From a virus: a stretch of DNA of 64,000 nt. Location: IMG/VR virus record IMGVR_UViG_3300015371_000015, positions 1 through 64,000 of that record, one strand, 5' to 3'. A program made the translations under genes and the position numbers. This document shows, piece by piece, positions 34,106 to 54,610 of this stretch (positions within the stretch are counted from its first letter, which is position 1; every line of letters starts with the position of its first letter). The notes under the pieces are model-generated. The model did not search any database, was not told where the DNA came from, and worked only from the letters and a program-made list of their open reading frames with translations.

Positions 34106-34111
34106 CACATC

Positions 34112-34139
34112 AAGCCCGCCCCGCAAGGGGTTAGGGTTT
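34112..34139 (+). terminator. recurrent terminator-like hairpin (AGCCC-GCCCC-loop-GGGGT-TA-GGGTTT)
   Basis: related hairpins at ~34645-34695, 39406-39446, 57010-57042, 62210-62237, 62494-62527, 62876-62906, 63439-63471, 63748-63781, each just after a stop codon. Confidence 0.75.
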
Positions 34140-34166
34140 CGCTCGCGCTGGAAACTGCTACTAAGA

Positions 34167-34281
34167 TGAGACCCAGAACCCACCGAAGTTCTGGCCTAGC
34201 CTTACTGCCGTATTAAATCGTCCCGAACGATCCAGAACACAAGTTCCTAAGTGCGCTTTAAGAGTGGGCGCACAGGTCTCA
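34167..34281 (+). ncRNA. putative small structured RNA (cassette without an ORF)
   Basis: TGAGACC/GGTCTCA closing stem; internal hairpins CCAGAAC/GTTCTGG, ATCGT/ACGAT, GAAC/GTTC, GTGCGCTT/GGGCGCAC; begins at a promoter repeat. Confidence 0.6.
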
Positions 34282-34350
34282 ACTGTTCATATTTTTCTCT
34301 CGCGCTGATAACAACTACTGTAATGAGACCATCCCAGTTTAGGAGCCACC

Positions 34351-35424: not shown

Positions 35425-35918
35425 GCGGCGAGGGTCTGAGGGCGCTTCAGGAGGCCCTGGTCAAGTGGGTTCGACTCGAGCGCAAGCCCGAGACCCCCGA
35501 GGTCGAGACCAAGGACGTCGGTGGCGTCCAGGTCACCACGGTCATGGCCTTCCCGGAGGCGAAGGAGGGTGAGCGTCACGCTGACCTTCATTTCATGCTC
35601 GCATCCAAGGACGAGTCCTTCCCCACCAAGGAAGAGCTCATCGCCACGGTGCAGGCAGCCATCGGCGAAGGTGAGTTCGTGACCATGGAGGCGCAGCGTC
35701 TCGCCGGCGGCCTCTCCTACATCGATCTAGGCGGATGGCTGGGTTCCCAGGACCTGGCCGTTCGTCTGATCGGTGCCATGGAGTTGGCTGAGATCGGACC
35801 TGCCATCACGCCTGCCACTCTCGGGATCACAGGCACACAGGCCAACGAGCTGGCCGGCATGGGGATGGTCATGATGACTCCCTATGACGGGTGGACGCCG
35901 GCCGAGGTCAAGGCGTAG
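35421..35918 (+). CDS. hypothetical protein
   Basis: ORF with GC3-rich codon usage. Confidence 0.7.
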   Translation: MSGEGLRALQEALVKWVRLERKPETPEVETKDVGGVQVTTVMAFPEAKEGERHADLHFMLASKDESFPTKEELIATVQAAIGEGEFVTMEAQRLAGGLSYIDLGGWLGSQDLAVRLIGAMELAEIGPAITPATLGITGTQANELAGMGMVMMTPYDGWTPAEVKA

Positions 35919-35925
35919 GTACGAA

Positions 35926-36339
35926 ATGGGCGAGCGCATCGATCGATTCAAGTCCACGATCAAGGTTGCTGAGGTCAAGGCTCATATCCAACGCAACCAG
36001 AAGGCATACATCACCGGTGGTGTGTGTCTGGCCATCGGCGTTCTCGGGACGCTGGCGGCAGCCAAGAACAACAGCACTACGGTGATCAGCAGCATCGAAG
36101 GCAACCGGAACAACTTCGTCGGAACGGCGGAGCACGTCACGGTCGTTGTTGCCGAGCTTGAGCGACGAGGTCACCCGGGCAACGTCGTGCGTTGTCTCGA
36201 GACGGGCGAAGTGTTCGCCAGTCAGAGGCGCGCCGCAGAGATGCTCGGCGTCAACCCAGGAGAGATCTCGAAGCAGCTGCGCGGTCTGACCGATAAGGCC
36301 GGCGGCTACACCTTCGAGAATCTCGGCGAGGCTGCCTAG
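35926..36339 (+). CDS. membrane-anchored NUMOD1-like HTH DNA-binding protein
   Basis: TM segment, then VRCLETGEVF.S...AA..LGV....IS..L.G....AGGY.F. Confidence 0.7.
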   Translation: MGERIDRFKSTIKVAEVKAHIQRNQKAYITGGVCLAIGVLGTLAAAKNNSTTVISSIEGNRNNFVGTAEHVTVVVAELERRGHPGNVVRCLETGEVFASQRRAAEMLGVNPGEISKQLRGLTDKAGGYTFENLGEAA

Positions 36340-36360
36340 TCGCGAAAAGAACAAGCACTA

Positions 36361-36503
36361 AGATGAGACCCCTCTTACTTGGACGATCATTGCGATAGTC
36401 CTATGCCATCAAGACGATCATTGCGATAGTCGAGCGATCATTGCGATAGCAGGCATGCCCAACGGTCATTGCGACAGTTCGGTAAGTGAGAGGGGTCTCA
36501 TCT
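36361..36503 (+). ncRNA. putative structured RNA with four repeated AUUGC-loop hairpins
   Basis: 20-bp closing stem 36361-36380/36484-36503; repeats at 36381, 36413, 36434, 36461. Confidence 0.75.
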
Positions 36504-36551
36504 CTTGGACTTACATCAAGTGAATTATTTTTTCTATCAGCAAGGAGCATC

Positions 36552-36968
36552 ATGAGCAACGATATCGAGGACTTCTTGGCCACCCGTGACCAGTTGTCGA
36601 AGGAGTACGAAGGCATCGGTCTGAGGATCGATGAACTGCAGGCCGAGCTCAACGACCTCAAGGCCCGCAAGCGCCTTCTGGACAAGGCATTCGGCGTGCC
36701 CGTCAAGAAGACGGCGAGGAAGAAGCCGGCTGCCAAGAAGGCCGCACCCAGGGGCGGAAGCACGCCCAAGGACGACCCCAACGTCGAGCGTCTGGTCGAG
36801 CTGCTGAAGGGGTCTCCCACCATGGGGAGGGACGAGATCGCAACCCACTTCCCCAAGCTGGACAGCAAGGGCCTGGGTCTGCTGCTGAGCAAGTGCAAGA
36901 AGCGCGGTCTCATCGACAACGCCGGCGGTAAGCGGCACCCGGCATGGTTCGCTGTGGAGCAGGCATGA
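36552..36968 (+). CDS. coiled-coil + winged-helix-like protein
   Basis: AAGGAG RBS; N-terminal coiled coil, K/A-rich linker, C-terminal wHTH-like pattern. Confidence 0.6.
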   Translation: MSNDIEDFLATRDQLSKEYEGIGLRIDELQAELNDLKARKRLLDKAFGVPVKKTARKKPAAKKAAPRGGSTPKDDPNVERLVELLKGSPTMGRDEIATHFPKLDSKGLGLLLSKCKKRGLIDNAGGKRHPAWFAVEQA

Positions 36969-37117
36969 TCATTCCTGCTGAACATCGTGACCACTGGATG
37001 GAGCCGAAGAACATCTCTCGCAAGCGTGACAAGAGCGAGAAGTTCTGCGAGTCCTGTGGCGTGGCGATTCCCTTCCATGACCGGAAGTGCTCCTTCCTCA
37101 AGGGCCAGACTCGGTGA
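36965..37117 (+). CDS. 50-aa putative zinc-binding protein
   Basis: ATGA overlap; CESC.....H...C. Confidence 0.5.
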   Translation: MIIPAEHRDHWMEPKNISRKRDKSEKFCESCGVAIPFHDRKCSFLKGQTR

Positions 37118-37248
37118 CGGTCGGCATCCCGTGGGGAGAAGACCTCGAGCGTGATTGCTTGGAGATGCGCAAGTTGGAGTCGTGGGGCCTCTTCGCCAGG
37201 GGTCACCACGACGCCACTTGCACTCTCCACCATATGAAAGGATCGACC

Positions 37249-37425
37249 ATGACACCGGAAGAAGCACCGATCGGAACAGTCTGTCACATCGGCCCTCCCA
37301 GGAACGGGAAGCTCGCTCGCAAGGAGCCCGATGGCAAGTGGATCTACCTCAGAGCCGATGGTGGCGAAGTCGATTACGACGATGCTCACAAGTCCATGAC
37401 CGTCGCCTTCATGCCTCAGGGCTGA
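37249..37425 (+). CDS. hypothetical protein
   Basis: GAAAGGA RBS. Confidence 0.55.
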   Translation: MTPEEAPIGTVCHIGPPRNGKLARKEPDGKWIYLRADGGEVDYDDAHKSMTVAFMPQG

Positions 37426-37455
37426 AAAACTCGCGGTCAAAACAACGACTGTAAT

Positions 37456-37510
37456 GAGAGAGAAGAAGCCAGTAGTCTGGCCTACGCCTATAAGCGTAGC
37501 TTCTCTTTTT
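37456..37510 (+). ncRNA. putative small three-way-junction RNA
   Basis: GAAGC/GCTTC closing stem; CCAG-tagt-CTGG and CTACGC-ctataa-GCGTAG hairpins; U-tract; follows a promoter repeat. Confidence 0.45.
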
Positions 37511-37552
37511 GTCTCGCTATATTTCAACAATCGCTCACGAAAGGGCAACCGA

Positions 37553-38380
37553 ATGAAGTTCGACATCGCCAAGGGGATGAAGGCTGCGAAGTCCCTCATC
37601 ACCGCCAACTCGCCTGTCTTGCTGACCGGTGCATCCATCGCCGGCATCGTTGCGACGGGCGTCCTCGCTGCCAAGGGCGGCTACAAGGCGCGAGGTATCG
37701 TCGACGAGGAGCGCATGCGTCGTGTGGCTTCCCCGGAGCCTCCGTTCGACACCTTCGCCGAGTACTACAAGACGTACGTGGAGAAGGCGCCGGACCTGAC
37801 CTTGCAGGAGAAGGTCAAGCTGACTTGGCTCTGCTACGCCGCACCTGCGGTGACTGGTGTGACCGCGATTAGTTCGACCGCTGGTGTGCACCTGATCCAC
37901 ACCAAGCGGCATGCTGCCCTGGCTGGTCTGTACGCCATGACCAGCGCCAAGCTCGATGACGTGAGCGAGAAGGCCGAGGAGCTGCTCGGTCCGAAGAAGG
38001 CACAGGAGCTGAAGAACGAGATTTCCCAGAAGGCGGTCGACCGTGACGGTCCGATCGTCAACACAGAGGTCATGATCACTGGCGACGGCACGGCTCTGAC
38101 CCATGACCAGGGAACCGGTCGATGGTTCATGAGTTCGGTCAACAAGATCGAAGCGGCCGTCAACGAGGTCAATGCTGAGCTGGCCAACAACTCCGGCGCA
38201 GTCTGCCTCAACGACCTGTACGACAAGCTGGGCATGGAGCCCGTCGAGCTCGGCAACAAGGTCGGTTGGTCCGGCACGCTGATCACGGCCAAGTTCGGTG
38301 AGGTGAGGGCCTCGGACGGACAGGTGGCCAACAGCGTATGGTTTCAGCCCGCACCCTCGTTCGGTTACAACAAGCGTTGA
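37553..38380 (+). CDS. DUF6353-like phage protein (paralogue 1)
   Basis: NSP.LLTG....G...T.VLA, LNDLY..LG.......GW. Confidence 0.7.
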   Translation: MKFDIAKGMKAAKSLITANSPVLLTGASIAGIVATGVLAAKGGYKARGIVDEERMRRVASPEPPFDTFAEYYKTYVEKAPDLTLQEKVKLTWLCYAAPAVTGVTAISSTAGVHLIHTKRHAALAGLYAMTSAKLDDVSEKAEELLGPKKAQELKNEISQKAVDRDGPIVNTEVMITGDGTALTHDQGTGRWFMSSVNKIEAAVNEVNAELANNSGAVCLNDLYDKLGMEPVELGNKVGWSGTLITAKFGEVRASDGQVANSVWFQPAPSFGYNKR

Positions 38381-39399: not shown

Positions 39400-39495
39400 T
39401 CCAAGAGCCCTAGCCCATCGCCACCACCACGATGAGTTAGGGTTTTCTCTTCGCCGCTTATCGCCACCTATCAGTTCAAAATGGGAGACAAATCT

Positions 39496-40044
39496 ATGAA
39501 GACTCGGCTCAACTACGCCATCCTCAACAACGGAGAGGTCAAGGAGGTCATCGATTCCTCAGTGGTTTTGGATGATGACTCTCACCACACCAAGATCGCA
39601 TGGATCAACAGCCTGGTGGAGTCCAATCCAGGGTGCATCTTCTTCCTCGTGACCGACACCACCGACATCTTCGAGGCTGAAGACGAGCCTGAGATCGAGA
39701 GCGTCTCGATGATGTTCGATGCGAACAGTCCCAACTGGGGTCCAGACCCGAAGTACGCCCTTTCCTTCCTCAAGGCTACGCAGAACCACATGAACAATGT
39801 GCTGCAGATCCGTGGATGGCTCGTGCTCAACGACGTGCTGGACGCTGTGGGACTAGAGCGCACGGCACAGGGCATGACGGTGGGCTGGCGTAGGGACGCA
39901 GACGAGGATGGAACCGGAGACGGCTTCATCGACTTCGGACTCGACAGCGAGGACGAGTACACGCTCGCCTTTATTCGTGGAGAAGAGAGCACCGTGCTGT
40001 TGGACTTCAACGTCGACGGCGACATATCAAGCAAGGTCTCTTAG
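39496..40044 (+). CDS. protein with DUF6353-like C-terminal domain (paralogue 2)
   Basis: LNDVLDA.GL...GW...GDGFIDFGL...LDFNVDG.I shared with 42664-43554. Confidence 0.7.
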   Translation: MKTRLNYAILNNGEVKEVIDSSVVLDDDSHHTKIAWINSLVESNPGCIFFLVTDTTDIFEAEDEPEIESVSMMFDANSPNWGPDPKYALSFLKATQNHMNNVLQIRGWLVLNDVLDAVGLERTAQGMTVGWRRDADEDGTGDGFIDFGLDSEDEYTLAFIRGEESTVLLDFNVDGDISSKVS

Positions 40045-42663: not shown

Positions 42664-43554
42664 ATGAAGTTCGTACCAAACTCAGTGTCTCGGCTCGCTA
42701 GCCGTGGAGCACTCCAGGTGAGTGCCAAGAGCCCCACCATTCTCGTCGTCTCCGGTGTCGTAGGACTCGGGGCGGCTGCGGTCATGGCCGCACGTGCCAC
42801 TCGCAAGATCGACCCCGTGATCGAGTCTCACCAGAAGGAGCGGTGGGACATCAAGGCGCACATGCCGGCGACGCAGGTGGAGAAGAAGGAGCAGCAGCGC
42901 AAGCTGTTCGACCTCTACATGAACACCGGATGGGAGCTGGGTAAGATCTACGGCCCCACCATCCTCGTGGGCTCGCTGTCCGCGGTCTCGGTCCTCTACG
43001 GTCACCGGATCCTTCAGCGTCGCCACGCGGCGTCCCTGGCGGCGTACTCCAGCCTGTTCGAGCTGTTCACCTCCTACCGCAAGCGCGTTGCGCAGACGGT
43101 GGGTGAGGAGAAGGAGCGGGCCATCTACGACGGTGCGACGCTCCAGTACGTCGAAGACCCAGACCACAAGGGTGAGTACAAGCTCGAGCCGAAGTTCCCC
43201 GACGAGGCGGAGGTCACGTACTTGCGTCCCTGGTTCGGCCCCGACAACCCGAACTGGGTCAACGACCCGATCTCCACGTTCTCCTTCCTCAAGGGAGTCC
43301 AGCAGCACATGAACAACGTGCTGAACACCCGCGGCTACGTCTTCCTCAACGACGTGCTGGACGCTCTGCGCTTGCCTCAGGTCAAGCAGGGACAGGTGGC
43401 CGGCTGGCTGCTCAAGGACGTAGGGGAGGGTGACGGCTTCATCGACTTCGGCCTCTACAGTGACGACCCGCACACGGTCGCATTCCGCGACGGCATGTCC
43501 AAGACCGTTCAACTCCACTTCAACATCGACGGCAACATCTACGACCTGCTCTGA
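42664..43554 (+). CDS. DUF6353-like phage protein (paralogue 3)
   Basis: SPTIL...G..G, GYVFLNDV.D.L, GQ.AGW, FNIDG.I.D. Confidence 0.75.
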   Translation: MKFVPNSVSRLASRGALQVSAKSPTILVVSGVVGLGAAAVMAARATRKIDPVIESHQKERWDIKAHMPATQVEKKEQQRKLFDLYMNTGWELGKIYGPTILVGSLSAVSVLYGHRILQRRHAASLAAYSSLFELFTSYRKRVAQTVGEEKERAIYDGATLQYVEDPDHKGEYKLEPKFPDEAEVTYLRPWFGPDNPNWVNDPISTFSFLKGVQQHMNNVLNTRGYVFLNDVLDALRLPQVKQGQVAGWLLKDVGEGDGFIDFGLYSDDPHTVAFRDGMSKTVQLHFNIDGNIYDLL

Positions 43555-53292: not shown

Positions 53293-53405
53293 CATGTGAG
53301 CATGGGGGATCGGGATTAAAAGAACCAAGATTGGGGCCGGTACCCGCCTCAGCGCCCGGTCCCCCGTGTGCATATTTCAGAACTCGCGCGAAAAACAACT
53401 TCTAT

Positions 53406-53503
53406 AATGAGACGTACTGAAGCCAATCAGTTCAAATGTCGTAAGAAGCCAACTACCGAGCTATCCCTAGCTTAACTGTAGGTTGCGAAGACGACGTCTC
53501 ATT
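53406..53503 (+). ncRNA. putative small structured RNA (cassette without an ORF)
   Basis: AATGAGACGT/ACGTCTCATT perfect 10-bp closing stem; ACTGA/TCAGT, GTCGT/ACGAC, AGCTA/TAGCT inner stems. Confidence 0.6.
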
Positions 53504-53536
53504 CTTTGTTTCACTCCCACCACCTAAGGAGACAGC

Positions 53537-53795: not shown

Positions 53796-54610
53796 ACTCG
53801 ACTGAGCGAGTCTAAATAGGCCTTAAGCTCAGAGCGGCCCTCTTCGGAGGGTGTGGACTGTCTGGCGAGACAGAACTTTCTCAGCGAAACTGATCTGGCA
53901 TACCGGAATCCGGCGTGCTTGCGGGAGTAGGTGTACAACTGAGGATTGGTTAAACAAAAACACGTGGTGGCAAGTTCGAGGCAGCCCTGGAGTTGGCCGC
54001 TAAGCAGTCGGGTCTCCAGCCCTCTCGGTCTCTGACTCTTCATAGAGAAGAACCGAGGCACTACCACCGCTCGCCCAGCACCTGAGGCGTGCAATAAACG
54101 GGGTGGCCCCAGTATCAGGCCATGTCAAAAGGCACCCCACCTTGACGTATGTCATATTTGTTAGAGACCTAGGAGGTGAGAGCGATGCAAGCCCGAGGGT
54201 TGTAATCACCCTCCTACAAGTCAACATAGTCTTGGTCATGGCAAGGACCCCCATTACGATGGTAAGGCCCCTCCCATGATCATATTCGCATGGAGGCACT
54301 ACACTCCGTGCGGCAAACCCGTCCCCTACAAACACCCAAGCTTCCGCATAGACGGTCATGAACGTAAAAGCGGACTGCTGAACTCTAGTGAGCCCAGACA
54401 ACCTGCGTAGCGGCTTTATGTGGCGCCATCAGGAATCTGCAAGCCTAGAGCAACTGGAGCGGCCCATAGTGGCCTGGTTACAAATGCACGAGACAAGCAC
54501 ACCGGTCAGGTTAATGTATCCATATTCGTTGTGAATCACTGGACTAAACTGAACCGCGTACATGAGGTGAGCTGCCACCATGGTTGATTCCAAGCGCAGT
54601 GAAGTTTAAG
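53796..54610 (+). ncRNA. putative large (~800 nt) structured non-coding RNA region
   Basis: no credible + strand ORF; many hairpins incl. CCCTC-TTCG-GAGGG, CTGTCT-GGCG-AGACAG, TAGGAGG/CCTCCTA. Confidence 0.5.

Follow-up and report, generated by a model that had tools for sequence, protein, structure and literature searches.

The idea that one RNA with several hairpins can bind a protein several times is known, and several described systems each resemble in part the phage element reported here (36340-36503, + strand). The CsrB, RsmZ and RsmY sponges are small RNAs in which many short hairpins show one loop motif repeatedly, as they do in the element, titration being presumed in our case. However, the sponges carry GGA loops, whereas all loops of the element are AUUGC, and the element is phage-encoded, has a long closing stem and offers only 2-4 sites. 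Rfam gave no CsrB/Rsm match, and to our knowledge CsrA is not found in Actinobacteria. The boxB hairpin of lambdoid nut sites is a promoter-proximal hairpin whose pentaloop is read by a protein, and the element shares both its position and its loop size. Yet boxB is single, has a GNRA-like purine loop and works with boxA and the N protein in antitermination, whereas the element has 2-4 copies in a terminator-like fold and no N-like gene is conserved nearby. Type III antitoxin RNAs (ToxI), which are regular tandem direct repeats with a cognate endoribonuclease toxin gene after them, and their pseudo-ToxI phage mimics share a promoter, repeated RNA units, a leaky terminator and a downstream ORF with the element, together with the idea of phage RNA mimicry. 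In contrast to ToxI, the element has no regular tandem unit, its spacing is irregular, its stems differ between copies and no ToxN/AbiQ-type gene lies downstream; the downstream genes vary, and the one in the window encodes a protein that belongs to no family and is not conserved. The initial annotation had likened the locus to CsrB/RsmZ and to phage mimics of RNA antitoxins, but GGA loops, a regular tandem unit and a toxin gene are all absent and the likenesses are analogies only. Y RNAs of the YrlA type share a closing stem made by the 5′ and 3′ ends, a variable displayed module and the occurrence of several such cassettes in one phage, but the payload of the element is a repeated hairpin and not a tRNA-like domain. 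In addition, 36340-36503 has no Rfam match to a Y RNA, and tblastn found no Ro60 homologue in the AUUGC-array carriers Qui, G001 and G002, the last two of which are incomplete.

Two further systems come close in their arrangement. ANTAR-target RNAs consist of two tandem hairpins, each with a hexanucleotide loop in which only A1 and G4 are fixed (PMC8164766). They are common in Actinobacteria, and the EutX and Rli55 sRNAs, which sequester an ANTAR regulator, provide a precedent for an sRNA decoy (PMC8164766, PMC8934654). The element shares with them tandem short hairpins, stems of at least 3 bp with free sequence, a loop with A1 and G4 (A-U-U-G-C) and linkers within 2-25 nt, the gaps between neighbouring hairpins in the window being 11, 2 and 10 nt. 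ANTAR hexaloops, for which the supplementary examples look like GUC-AACGAU-GAC, nevertheless differ from a pentaloop in which all five bases and the closing pair are fixed, and we rejected ANTAR-target membership because the loops are 5 nt long with an invariant C-G closure. The PeSL cassettes of T4-like phages are composite promoter and stem-loop units that punctuate early genes and appear modular between phages, and they are presented as promoter-terminator motifs that mediate shuffling (PMC4122927). In these respects they resemble the element, but PeSLs are not known to have arrays of covarying fixed-loop hairpins.

The window, a stretch of 64,000 nucleotides, covers the opening 64 kb of one 79,660-bp contig, which has a G+C content of 57.6%. 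The genome is that of a siphovirus-type phage and carries almost all of its genes on the + strand. Among the gene products are a large terminase, a fusion of protease and capsid protein, a tape measure protein of 1781 aa and a DNA primase/polymerase of 1241 aa, the last of which shares 53-55% identity with its counterparts in Gordonia cluster DJ phages and in Rhodococcus phage ReqiPepy6. The host is presumably an actinobacterium. A sequencing-run search recovered near-identical DNA only from rhizosphere and soil metagenomes, over several years. All 22 sequencing runs that contain the phage are DNA metagenomes, and in contigs from four DNA runs the element is without variants, the contigs ending at the repeats.

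The element begins with a promoter repeat, TCGCG-N5-AACAAG-N3-TAAGAT-GAGA (36340-36368), made up of TCGCG at 36340-36344, AACAAG at 36350-36355, TAAGAT at 36359-36364 and GAGA at 36365-36368. Both the sequence and the folds give a 20-bp closing stem, with one T.G (G-U) pair, between a 5′ arm AGATGAGACCCCTCTTACTT (36361-36380), which overlaps the end of the -10-like hexamer and the following GAGA, and a 3′ arm AAGTGAGAGGGGTCTCATCT (36484-36503). Within it lie hairpin 1, GGAC-G-AUC-AUUGC-GAU-A-GUCC (36381-36401), hairpin 2, GAC-G-ATC-ATTGC-GAT-A-GTC (36413-36431), hairpin 3, GC-G-ATC-ATTGC-GAT-A-GC (36434-36450), and hairpin 4, AAC-G-GUC-AUUGC-GAC-A-GUU (36461-36479). All four were read from the sequence; the alignment supports hairpins 1 and 4, with covariance model (CM) scores of 29.4 and 30.2 bits, and the fold supports both. 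Hairpins 2 and 3 share a sub-domain (36403-36456), seen in the sequence and the folds and closed by an AUGCC/GGCAU helix (36403-36407/36452-36456), and hairpin starts are spaced by about 31, 20 and 28 nt. The tail (36504-36551) holds a weak 4-bp hairpin, AUUAUUUUUUCU with its T6 run at 36528-36533, and the ribosome-binding site (RBS) AAGGAG (36542-36547) of the next gene. About 25 nt separate the T6 run from the 3′ end of the closing stem, so that the two do not adjoin, and an intrinsic-terminator scan confined to loops of 3-8 nt made no call at the element. The exact core RTCATTGCGAY occurs four times in the window, always within the element, other window matches having one mismatch, and has no copy in the genome's other 15.6 kb.

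These features bear out everything that the initial annotation had described at the locus, since the promoter repeat, the 20-bp stem with one G-U pair, the four hairpins and the ATGCC/GGCAT bracket are all present where it placed them. It had further claimed compensatory changes in both helices of the fourth copy, and hairpin 4 indeed differs from hairpins 1-3 by two double changes: in its outer helix A-U replaces G-C, and in its inner helix G-C replaces A-U. Its claim that there is no ORF also stands. On the + strand the element contains no ORF with a ribosome-binding site, and a 288-aa minus-strand ORF (36401-37267), antisense to the downstream gene and low-complexity in translation, was taken as spurious. 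The folding check that it had called for was favourable, with an RNA fold of 36340-36530 at -70.7 kcal/mol against -47.2 +/- 3.9 in dinucleotide shuffles (z = -6.1). In the minimum free energy fold the closing stem, the ATGCC/GGCAT helix and two of the hairpins (1 and 4) are retained, while a register-shifted pairing between repeats competes with hairpins 2 and 3.

The product of the upstream gene (35926-36339, + strand) is a protein of 137 aa that has a transmembrane helix at its N-terminus and a NUMOD-like HTH at its C-terminus (Pfam PF22083, E 2.7e-7; PHROG phrog_27818), and its homologues were used to reach related arrays. Such NUMOD-HTH homologues adjoin arrays in Qui, ReqiPepy6, Tanis and IMG/VR contigs, and the gene is a syntenic marker of hairpin-array cassettes and their sole consistent neighbour. 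The downstream gene (36552-36968, + strand) encodes a 138-aa protein that, as read from its translation, has a coiled coil, a basic linker and an HTH-like C-terminus. It matched no Pfam or PHROG family, and neither tblastn against Qui, G001, G002, ReqiPepy6 and Tanis nor the related-locus search returned a homologue. This gene has no promoter of its own and must be transcribed through the RNA cassette.

The same design recurs in five further arrays from four other phages, three of them represented by IMG/VR contigs and the fourth being Arthrobacter phage Qui (and likewise Paella). A promoter, a closing stem, 2-4 AUUGC hairpins and a U-run are found in every array, next to a NUMOD-HTH homologue that is 35-45% identical. 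Contig 3300047160_004082 (L056) has two of these arrays. The first lies downstream of a 45%-identical homologue and has the promoter TATAATGAGAG, a perfect 21-bp closing stem and three hairpins with TCATTGCGA tops, followed by a U-rich tail; the second has three GAC-AUUGC-GUC hairpins. In Qui (and Paella) the array occupies an unannotated gap after gene 172, with a promoter, a 15-bp closing stem, three hairpins and T6, and two of the three Qui hairpins are AAC-G-AUC-AUUGC-GAU-A-GUU. Contig 3300020125_000038 (L438) has two AUUGC hairpins with 7- and 11-bp stems containing G.U pairs, and in contig 3300045944_000135 (L430) an array of two hairpins lies upstream of the NUMOD gene, its closing stem, AAUGAGAGG/CCUCUCAUU, being followed by U8. 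In Qui, L438, L430 and L428 the U-run directly adjoins the closing stem, which is the form of a terminator with a G+C-rich stem and U-run. A blastn search of 35800-37100 against the phage collection gave no match, and at E up to 10 only Qui and Paella share the hairpins; neither ReqiPepy6 nor Tanis has an AUUGC array anywhere in its genome.

Comparison of the six arrays (window, Qui, two in L056, L438 and L430) provides evidence for selection on the fold. All six fold into one closed multi-branch shape, with z between -3.5 and -7.8 relative to shuffles. Alignment of 15 AUUGC hairpins drawn from five phages shows no change in the seven bases C-AUUGC-G, double changes in five of the six tested stem pairs, and pairing in 85.6% of cells, compared with 18-42% for slid partners. 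Covariation scores 0.575, whereas shuffles give 0.247, and none of 500 shuffles reaches the observed value. Below the 3-bp top helix there is usually an irregularity, either a 1x1 loop (G.A, A.A or C.A) or a 2x1 loop. Covariation together with a shared closed fold is strong evidence for a selected single-stranded fold, and the retention of the design in related phages argues for a real RNA element. Window and Qui have one and the same hairpin core (CGATCATTGCGATAG) despite an identity of only 37-40% in the neighbouring protein, and this points to strong purifying selection on the loop. The element is a clear example of a structured RNA module maintained by selection among phages in which the adjacent protein is down to 35-45% identity.

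Which strand is active is indicated by context. The hairpin stems contain G.U in four cells and A.C in three, about equal numbers, so the hairpins alone do not prove the strand. The element is co-oriented with all phage genes and promoters, the U-runs lie 3′ of the 3′ arms, and + strand folds are much more stable than - strand folds in the low-GC phages (-37.7 vs -27.1 and -32.8 vs -19.4 kcal/mol). A + strand RNA is therefore favoured on present sequence evidence. Rfam 15 has no family for it, either in the window at gathering thresholds or in four related loci at E up to 1, and we found no description of these RNAs in print. From sequence comparison we regard the element as a real, conserved and previously uncatalogued phage RNA element, the function of which we infer; its motif, scaffold, modular relatives and phage context are new. 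Phage-encoded non-coding RNAs are poorly charted, above all in phages of Actinobacteria.

The promoter repeat is present 20 times, always on the + strand, with its copies spread from 33 to 72 kb of the 79.66-kb genome (the non-structural half), and most copies lie 10-25 nt upstream of an RBS followed by ATG. A consensus scan for sigma-70-type promoters, with -35 and -10 elements 16-18 bp apart, finds none at the repeats, which have a TAnAAT hexamer only and TCGCG just 13-14 bp upstream. In promoters of Actinobacteria the -35 element is often absent. The same promoter motif type is present in ReqiPoco6 and Perkunas, and a similar 50-bp motif containing TATAAT has been reported for DJ phage Vardy (PMC9671010). 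As a component of our best explanation, and at even odds, the element would be part of the early/middle promoter regulon of the phage.

The closing stems use the bases immediately after the TAnAAT hexamer and sometimes its last 2-4 bases, an overlap seen in all window RNA cassettes and at L185 2900-3016, L430 2344-2430 and L438 2929-3022. In the L430 and L438 cassettes, and in two window cassettes at 53384 and 57051, the 5′ arm is almost wholly the 6-10 bases directly after the hexamer. A canonical sigma-70 start lies 6-8 nt downstream, which would exclude much of the closing stem from the RNA in most cassettes; in the window, 11 bp of the stem fall beyond the canonical start site. Possibly transcription begins at GAGA or upstream of it, an unusual arrangement for a sigma-70-type -10. 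Alternatively, the full closing stem may form only in read-through transcripts and could then be an RNase III site, or the complementarity to -10-proximal bases may serve another purpose. In the window, the NUMOD gene lacks its own terminator. Stems that pair with the promoter's own -10-proximal bases call into question the start site of a very common phage promoter type.

Our preferred reading, to which we assign a probability of about 0.5, is that the element is a small structured RNA that displays identical loops and binds several copies, or an oligomer, of one loop-specific partner, most likely a protein. The + strand gene would be transcribed into an RNA of roughly 125-180 nt, in which the closing stem would hold a multi-branch fold presenting four copies of one recognition module. 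This module would be a 3-bp helix capped by the AUUGC pentaloop on a C-G pair, over a 1x1 (usually G.A) internal loop and a variable lower helix. The RNA could then act as a protein sponge or decoy or as an assembly scaffold, and the closing stem and U-run would terminate most transcripts, with read-through providing the mRNA of the next gene. A fixed loop and closing pair combined with drifting stems, in 2-4 copies per RNA and swapped between cassettes as one unit, argues for multivalent binding of a loop-specific trans-acting partner, for which a dimeric or oligomeric protein would be the simplest candidate.

The search for this partner was directed at both phage and host. When 111 ORFs of the phage genome were compared by tblastn with Qui, G001, G002, ReqiPepy6 and Tanis, none proved specific to the phages with AUUGC arrays. 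Since the loop has no accessory phage gene as its companion, the partner is probably a host factor or a core phage protein. The initial annotation had proposed that the hairpin be sought in host genomes; a single-hairpin CM found no counterpart in 151 Micrococcales genomes, although this 25-nt model has little power and the true host may lie outside the genomes searched. The hits were isolated, and all 12 that were inspected fall inside long ORFs, often over Ile-Ile-Ala-Ile codons, so mimicry of a host RNA receives no support from them. Pattern searches gave similar outcomes. Among the matches listed, the 15-mer pattern in viral contigs returned 55 single chance matches, the three-copy CATTGCG pattern returned mostly unrelated tandem repeats, and the two-copy pattern in metagenome and genome contigs returned unrelated repeats, including a known-looking cyanobacterial/Bacteroidota repeat. 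For a CRISPR-repeat mimic (RNA anti-CRISPR), the genome-contig scan yielded only unrelated tandem repeats among the matches listed, and the Micrococcales genomes yielded the intra-ORF hits alone. We also considered and set aside mimicry of a tRNA anticodon arm: the AUUGC loop is without U33 geometry. The two tRNA-Ala genes compared are CGC isoacceptors. The initial annotation had read the locus as a multivalent decoy for a host protein. The part of this reading that holds is a structured, promoter-associated non-coding element under selection, given covariation across five phages; for the decoy itself, the partner was not found.

The position of the cassettes relative to genes is what gives a cis-acting leader or attenuator its appeal. 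In such an arrangement the fold and U-run would form a terminator in the 5′ UTR, and a loop-binding factor would tune read-through with no role in trans. The order promoter, repeats, terminator and ORF is the classic attenuator layout, the window, L056-b, L438, L430, L424 and L428 cassettes run directly into an RBS and start codon with no new promoter, and in four of the six AUUGC arrays the cassette is the next gene's only 5′ leader. We nevertheless consider it unlikely, because the genes downstream are unrelated (a 138-aa HTH-like protein, DUF6353, a 43-aa membrane peptide, a NUMOD protein and an HNH-like protein), the Qui cassette stands alone between its own promoter and the next, and the internal hairpins are compatible with the closing stem instead of competing with it, which leaves no obvious switch. 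It is highly improbable that the element has no specific function and is a promoter-terminator spacer or PeSL-like recombination cassette with internal repeats arising by local duplication. The cassettes are indeed modular, have promoter-derived inverted repeats at their flanks, are shuffled between phages and resemble PeSL units (PMC4122927), but local duplication explains neither an identical loop core across phages whose neighbour protein is 35-45% identical nor compensatory stem changes around a fixed loop.

The NUMOD-HTH neighbour brings in action at the DNA level, with the repeats, as duplex or as extruded hairpins, binding the adjacent membrane-anchored protein (to tether phage DNA at the membrane or as an operator) or serving as a single-strand origin. 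Arrays adjoin NUMOD-HTH genes in 8 of 13 distinct viral-contig loci (seven downstream of the gene and one upstream) as well as in the window, Qui, Tanis and ReqiPepy6, and L056 has three NUMOD paralogues, each with arrays. The C-terminal NUMOD domain, in an AlphaFold model, resembles the DNA-binding domains of I-HmuI and I-TevI, and the invariant core TCATTGCGA, at 9 bp, has the length of an HTH site. From the genomic arrangement, a link between AUUGC arrays and the consistently adjoining NUMOD-HTH gene is possible. However, duplex binding needs no complementary flanks, yet the flanks covary and tolerate G.U, and the spacings of about 31, 20 and 28 bp are not helically phased. The NUMOD recognition helix shows no clear correlation with loop type, a single contig (L056) has at least eight arrays with different loops, NUMOD genes without an array exist (L426 and L435), and charge distribution suggests that the HTH domain may face outward. 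The operator for flanking HTH proteins that the initial annotation had offered as an alternative is weakened both by these covarying stems with G.U pairs, which dsDNA binding does not explain, and by the absence of the downstream HTH-like gene beside the arrays of other phages. Overall, we regard a DNA site as decidedly unlikely. Base pairing has even less in its favour and is very unlikely, although some sRNAs do use repeated exposed loops as seeds and the loop family has AUUG in common; the loops would then make kissing or antisense contacts with a GCAAU-containing phage or host RNA. The exposed complementarity is just 5-7 nt, GCAAU is absent from the leaders and RBS that the phage's own cassettes have in common, and the sole 8-nt complement in the genome (near 34670) lies inside a terminator stem.

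An RNA that displays identical loops to one partner, our preferred reading, would also fit what surrounds the AUUGC element. Judged by sequence and predicted structure, it is a member of a wider, undescribed class in ReqiPepy6, Gordonia DJ and Qui-like actinophages. We defined this class by a phage promoter repeat, pairing of the closing stem with (A)AUGAGA, a set of 2-4 hairpins that have one loop in common, and a U-rich tail, all of which are found in the window and its relatives. Other cassettes with a similar scaffold have other loops, of the GUUAA, AUUGA, AUUG, CCUUUAGG and UAUGAGG types, many of which contain AUUG, and occur in ReqiPepy6, Tanis and contigs L424, L425, L427 and L428. Three or four copies each of GACGCCCGUUAAGGGUAUC are present in L424, L425 and L428, loops CGUAUUGAAC and GUCAUUGAGA in L427, and CCAUUGGG and CCUUUAUGAGGAG in ReqiPepy6. 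A conserved structured RNA candidate of about 105 nt lies in the unannotated gap after the NUMOD gene in both Tanis (Gordonia; L184 2880-3000) and ReqiPepy6 (Rhodococcus; L183 2890-3000); it has a CCUUUAGG(A/G)G hairpin and no Rfam match. The most extensive case is L056 2735-3720, about 1 kb without an ORF in which at least eight promoter/closing-stem modules follow one another, each repeating a hairpin of its own 2-3 times (CCUGUUAGG, CCUUGUAUGAGG, GAC-AUUGC-GUC, UCUAUUGACAG, GGAUUAAUGG, CCUUUAGG and others). These modules have the linkers CGGACGAGAC and GGAUCYC in common, while their loops differ.

The window itself contains four more non-coding promoter-driven cassettes, at 34143-34300, 37431-37515, 53384-53510 and 57051-57135, each with a 3′ arm that is complementary to (A)ATGAGA of its own promoter and precedes a U-rich tail. 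In the 53384 cassette GAAGCCAA occurs twice, at 53419-53426 in a predicted hairpin loop and at 53445-53452, and the 37431 cassette carries GAAGCCAG. Loops that are identical within one RNA but swapped between RNAs are what multivalent recognition predicts. It is tempting, if doubtful, to see in the cassettes a modular RNA decoy library, with a constant scaffold and swapped loops that would each titrate a different host RNA-binding regulator or RNA-targeting defence protein. Such a library would be an RNA-based counterpart of anti-defence gene islands, and loops that decoy host proteins would represent a new means of phage takeover or counter-defence, from which compact RNA-protein recognition pairs could be drawn. 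Culturable carriers exist (Arthrobacter phages Qui and Paella, with sister cassettes in Gordonia DJ phages and ReqiPepy6), which makes the partner and the function directly testable.

Several other features of the window were noted. Three paralogous DUF6353 genes are present (37454-38380, 39481-40044 and 42664-43554), and two of them contain a 136-nt stretch that is 71% identical between 39714-39849 and 43233-43368. The related-locus search returned no relatives of the DUF6353 protein; the gene family is core to all relatives examined. In the gene at 37454-38380, the ATG of the longest ORF falls within a promoter repeat (TAATGAGAG), and the real start is more likely the ATG at 37554 (MKFD...), 3′ of the 37431 RNA cassette. 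Downstream of the 53384 promoter and a small ORF lies a Pistol self-cleaving ribozyme (53796-53858, + strand; Rfam RF02679, 60.8 bits, E 1.3e-8). A 631-aa protein encoded at 54653-56548 matches phrog_850, annotated as 'RNA-binding protein', and its gene is flanked at 56550-56700 and 57130-57900 by repeated GGGTCGAA...CGGTTA units with tRNA-like arms. In addition, a terminator-like unit, CCCGCCCC-N4-GGGGTTAGGGTTT, is repeated at 34111-34145, 62209-62243, 62497, 62876, 63441 and 63751; these units lie directly 5′ of promoter repeats and mark single-gene cassettes.
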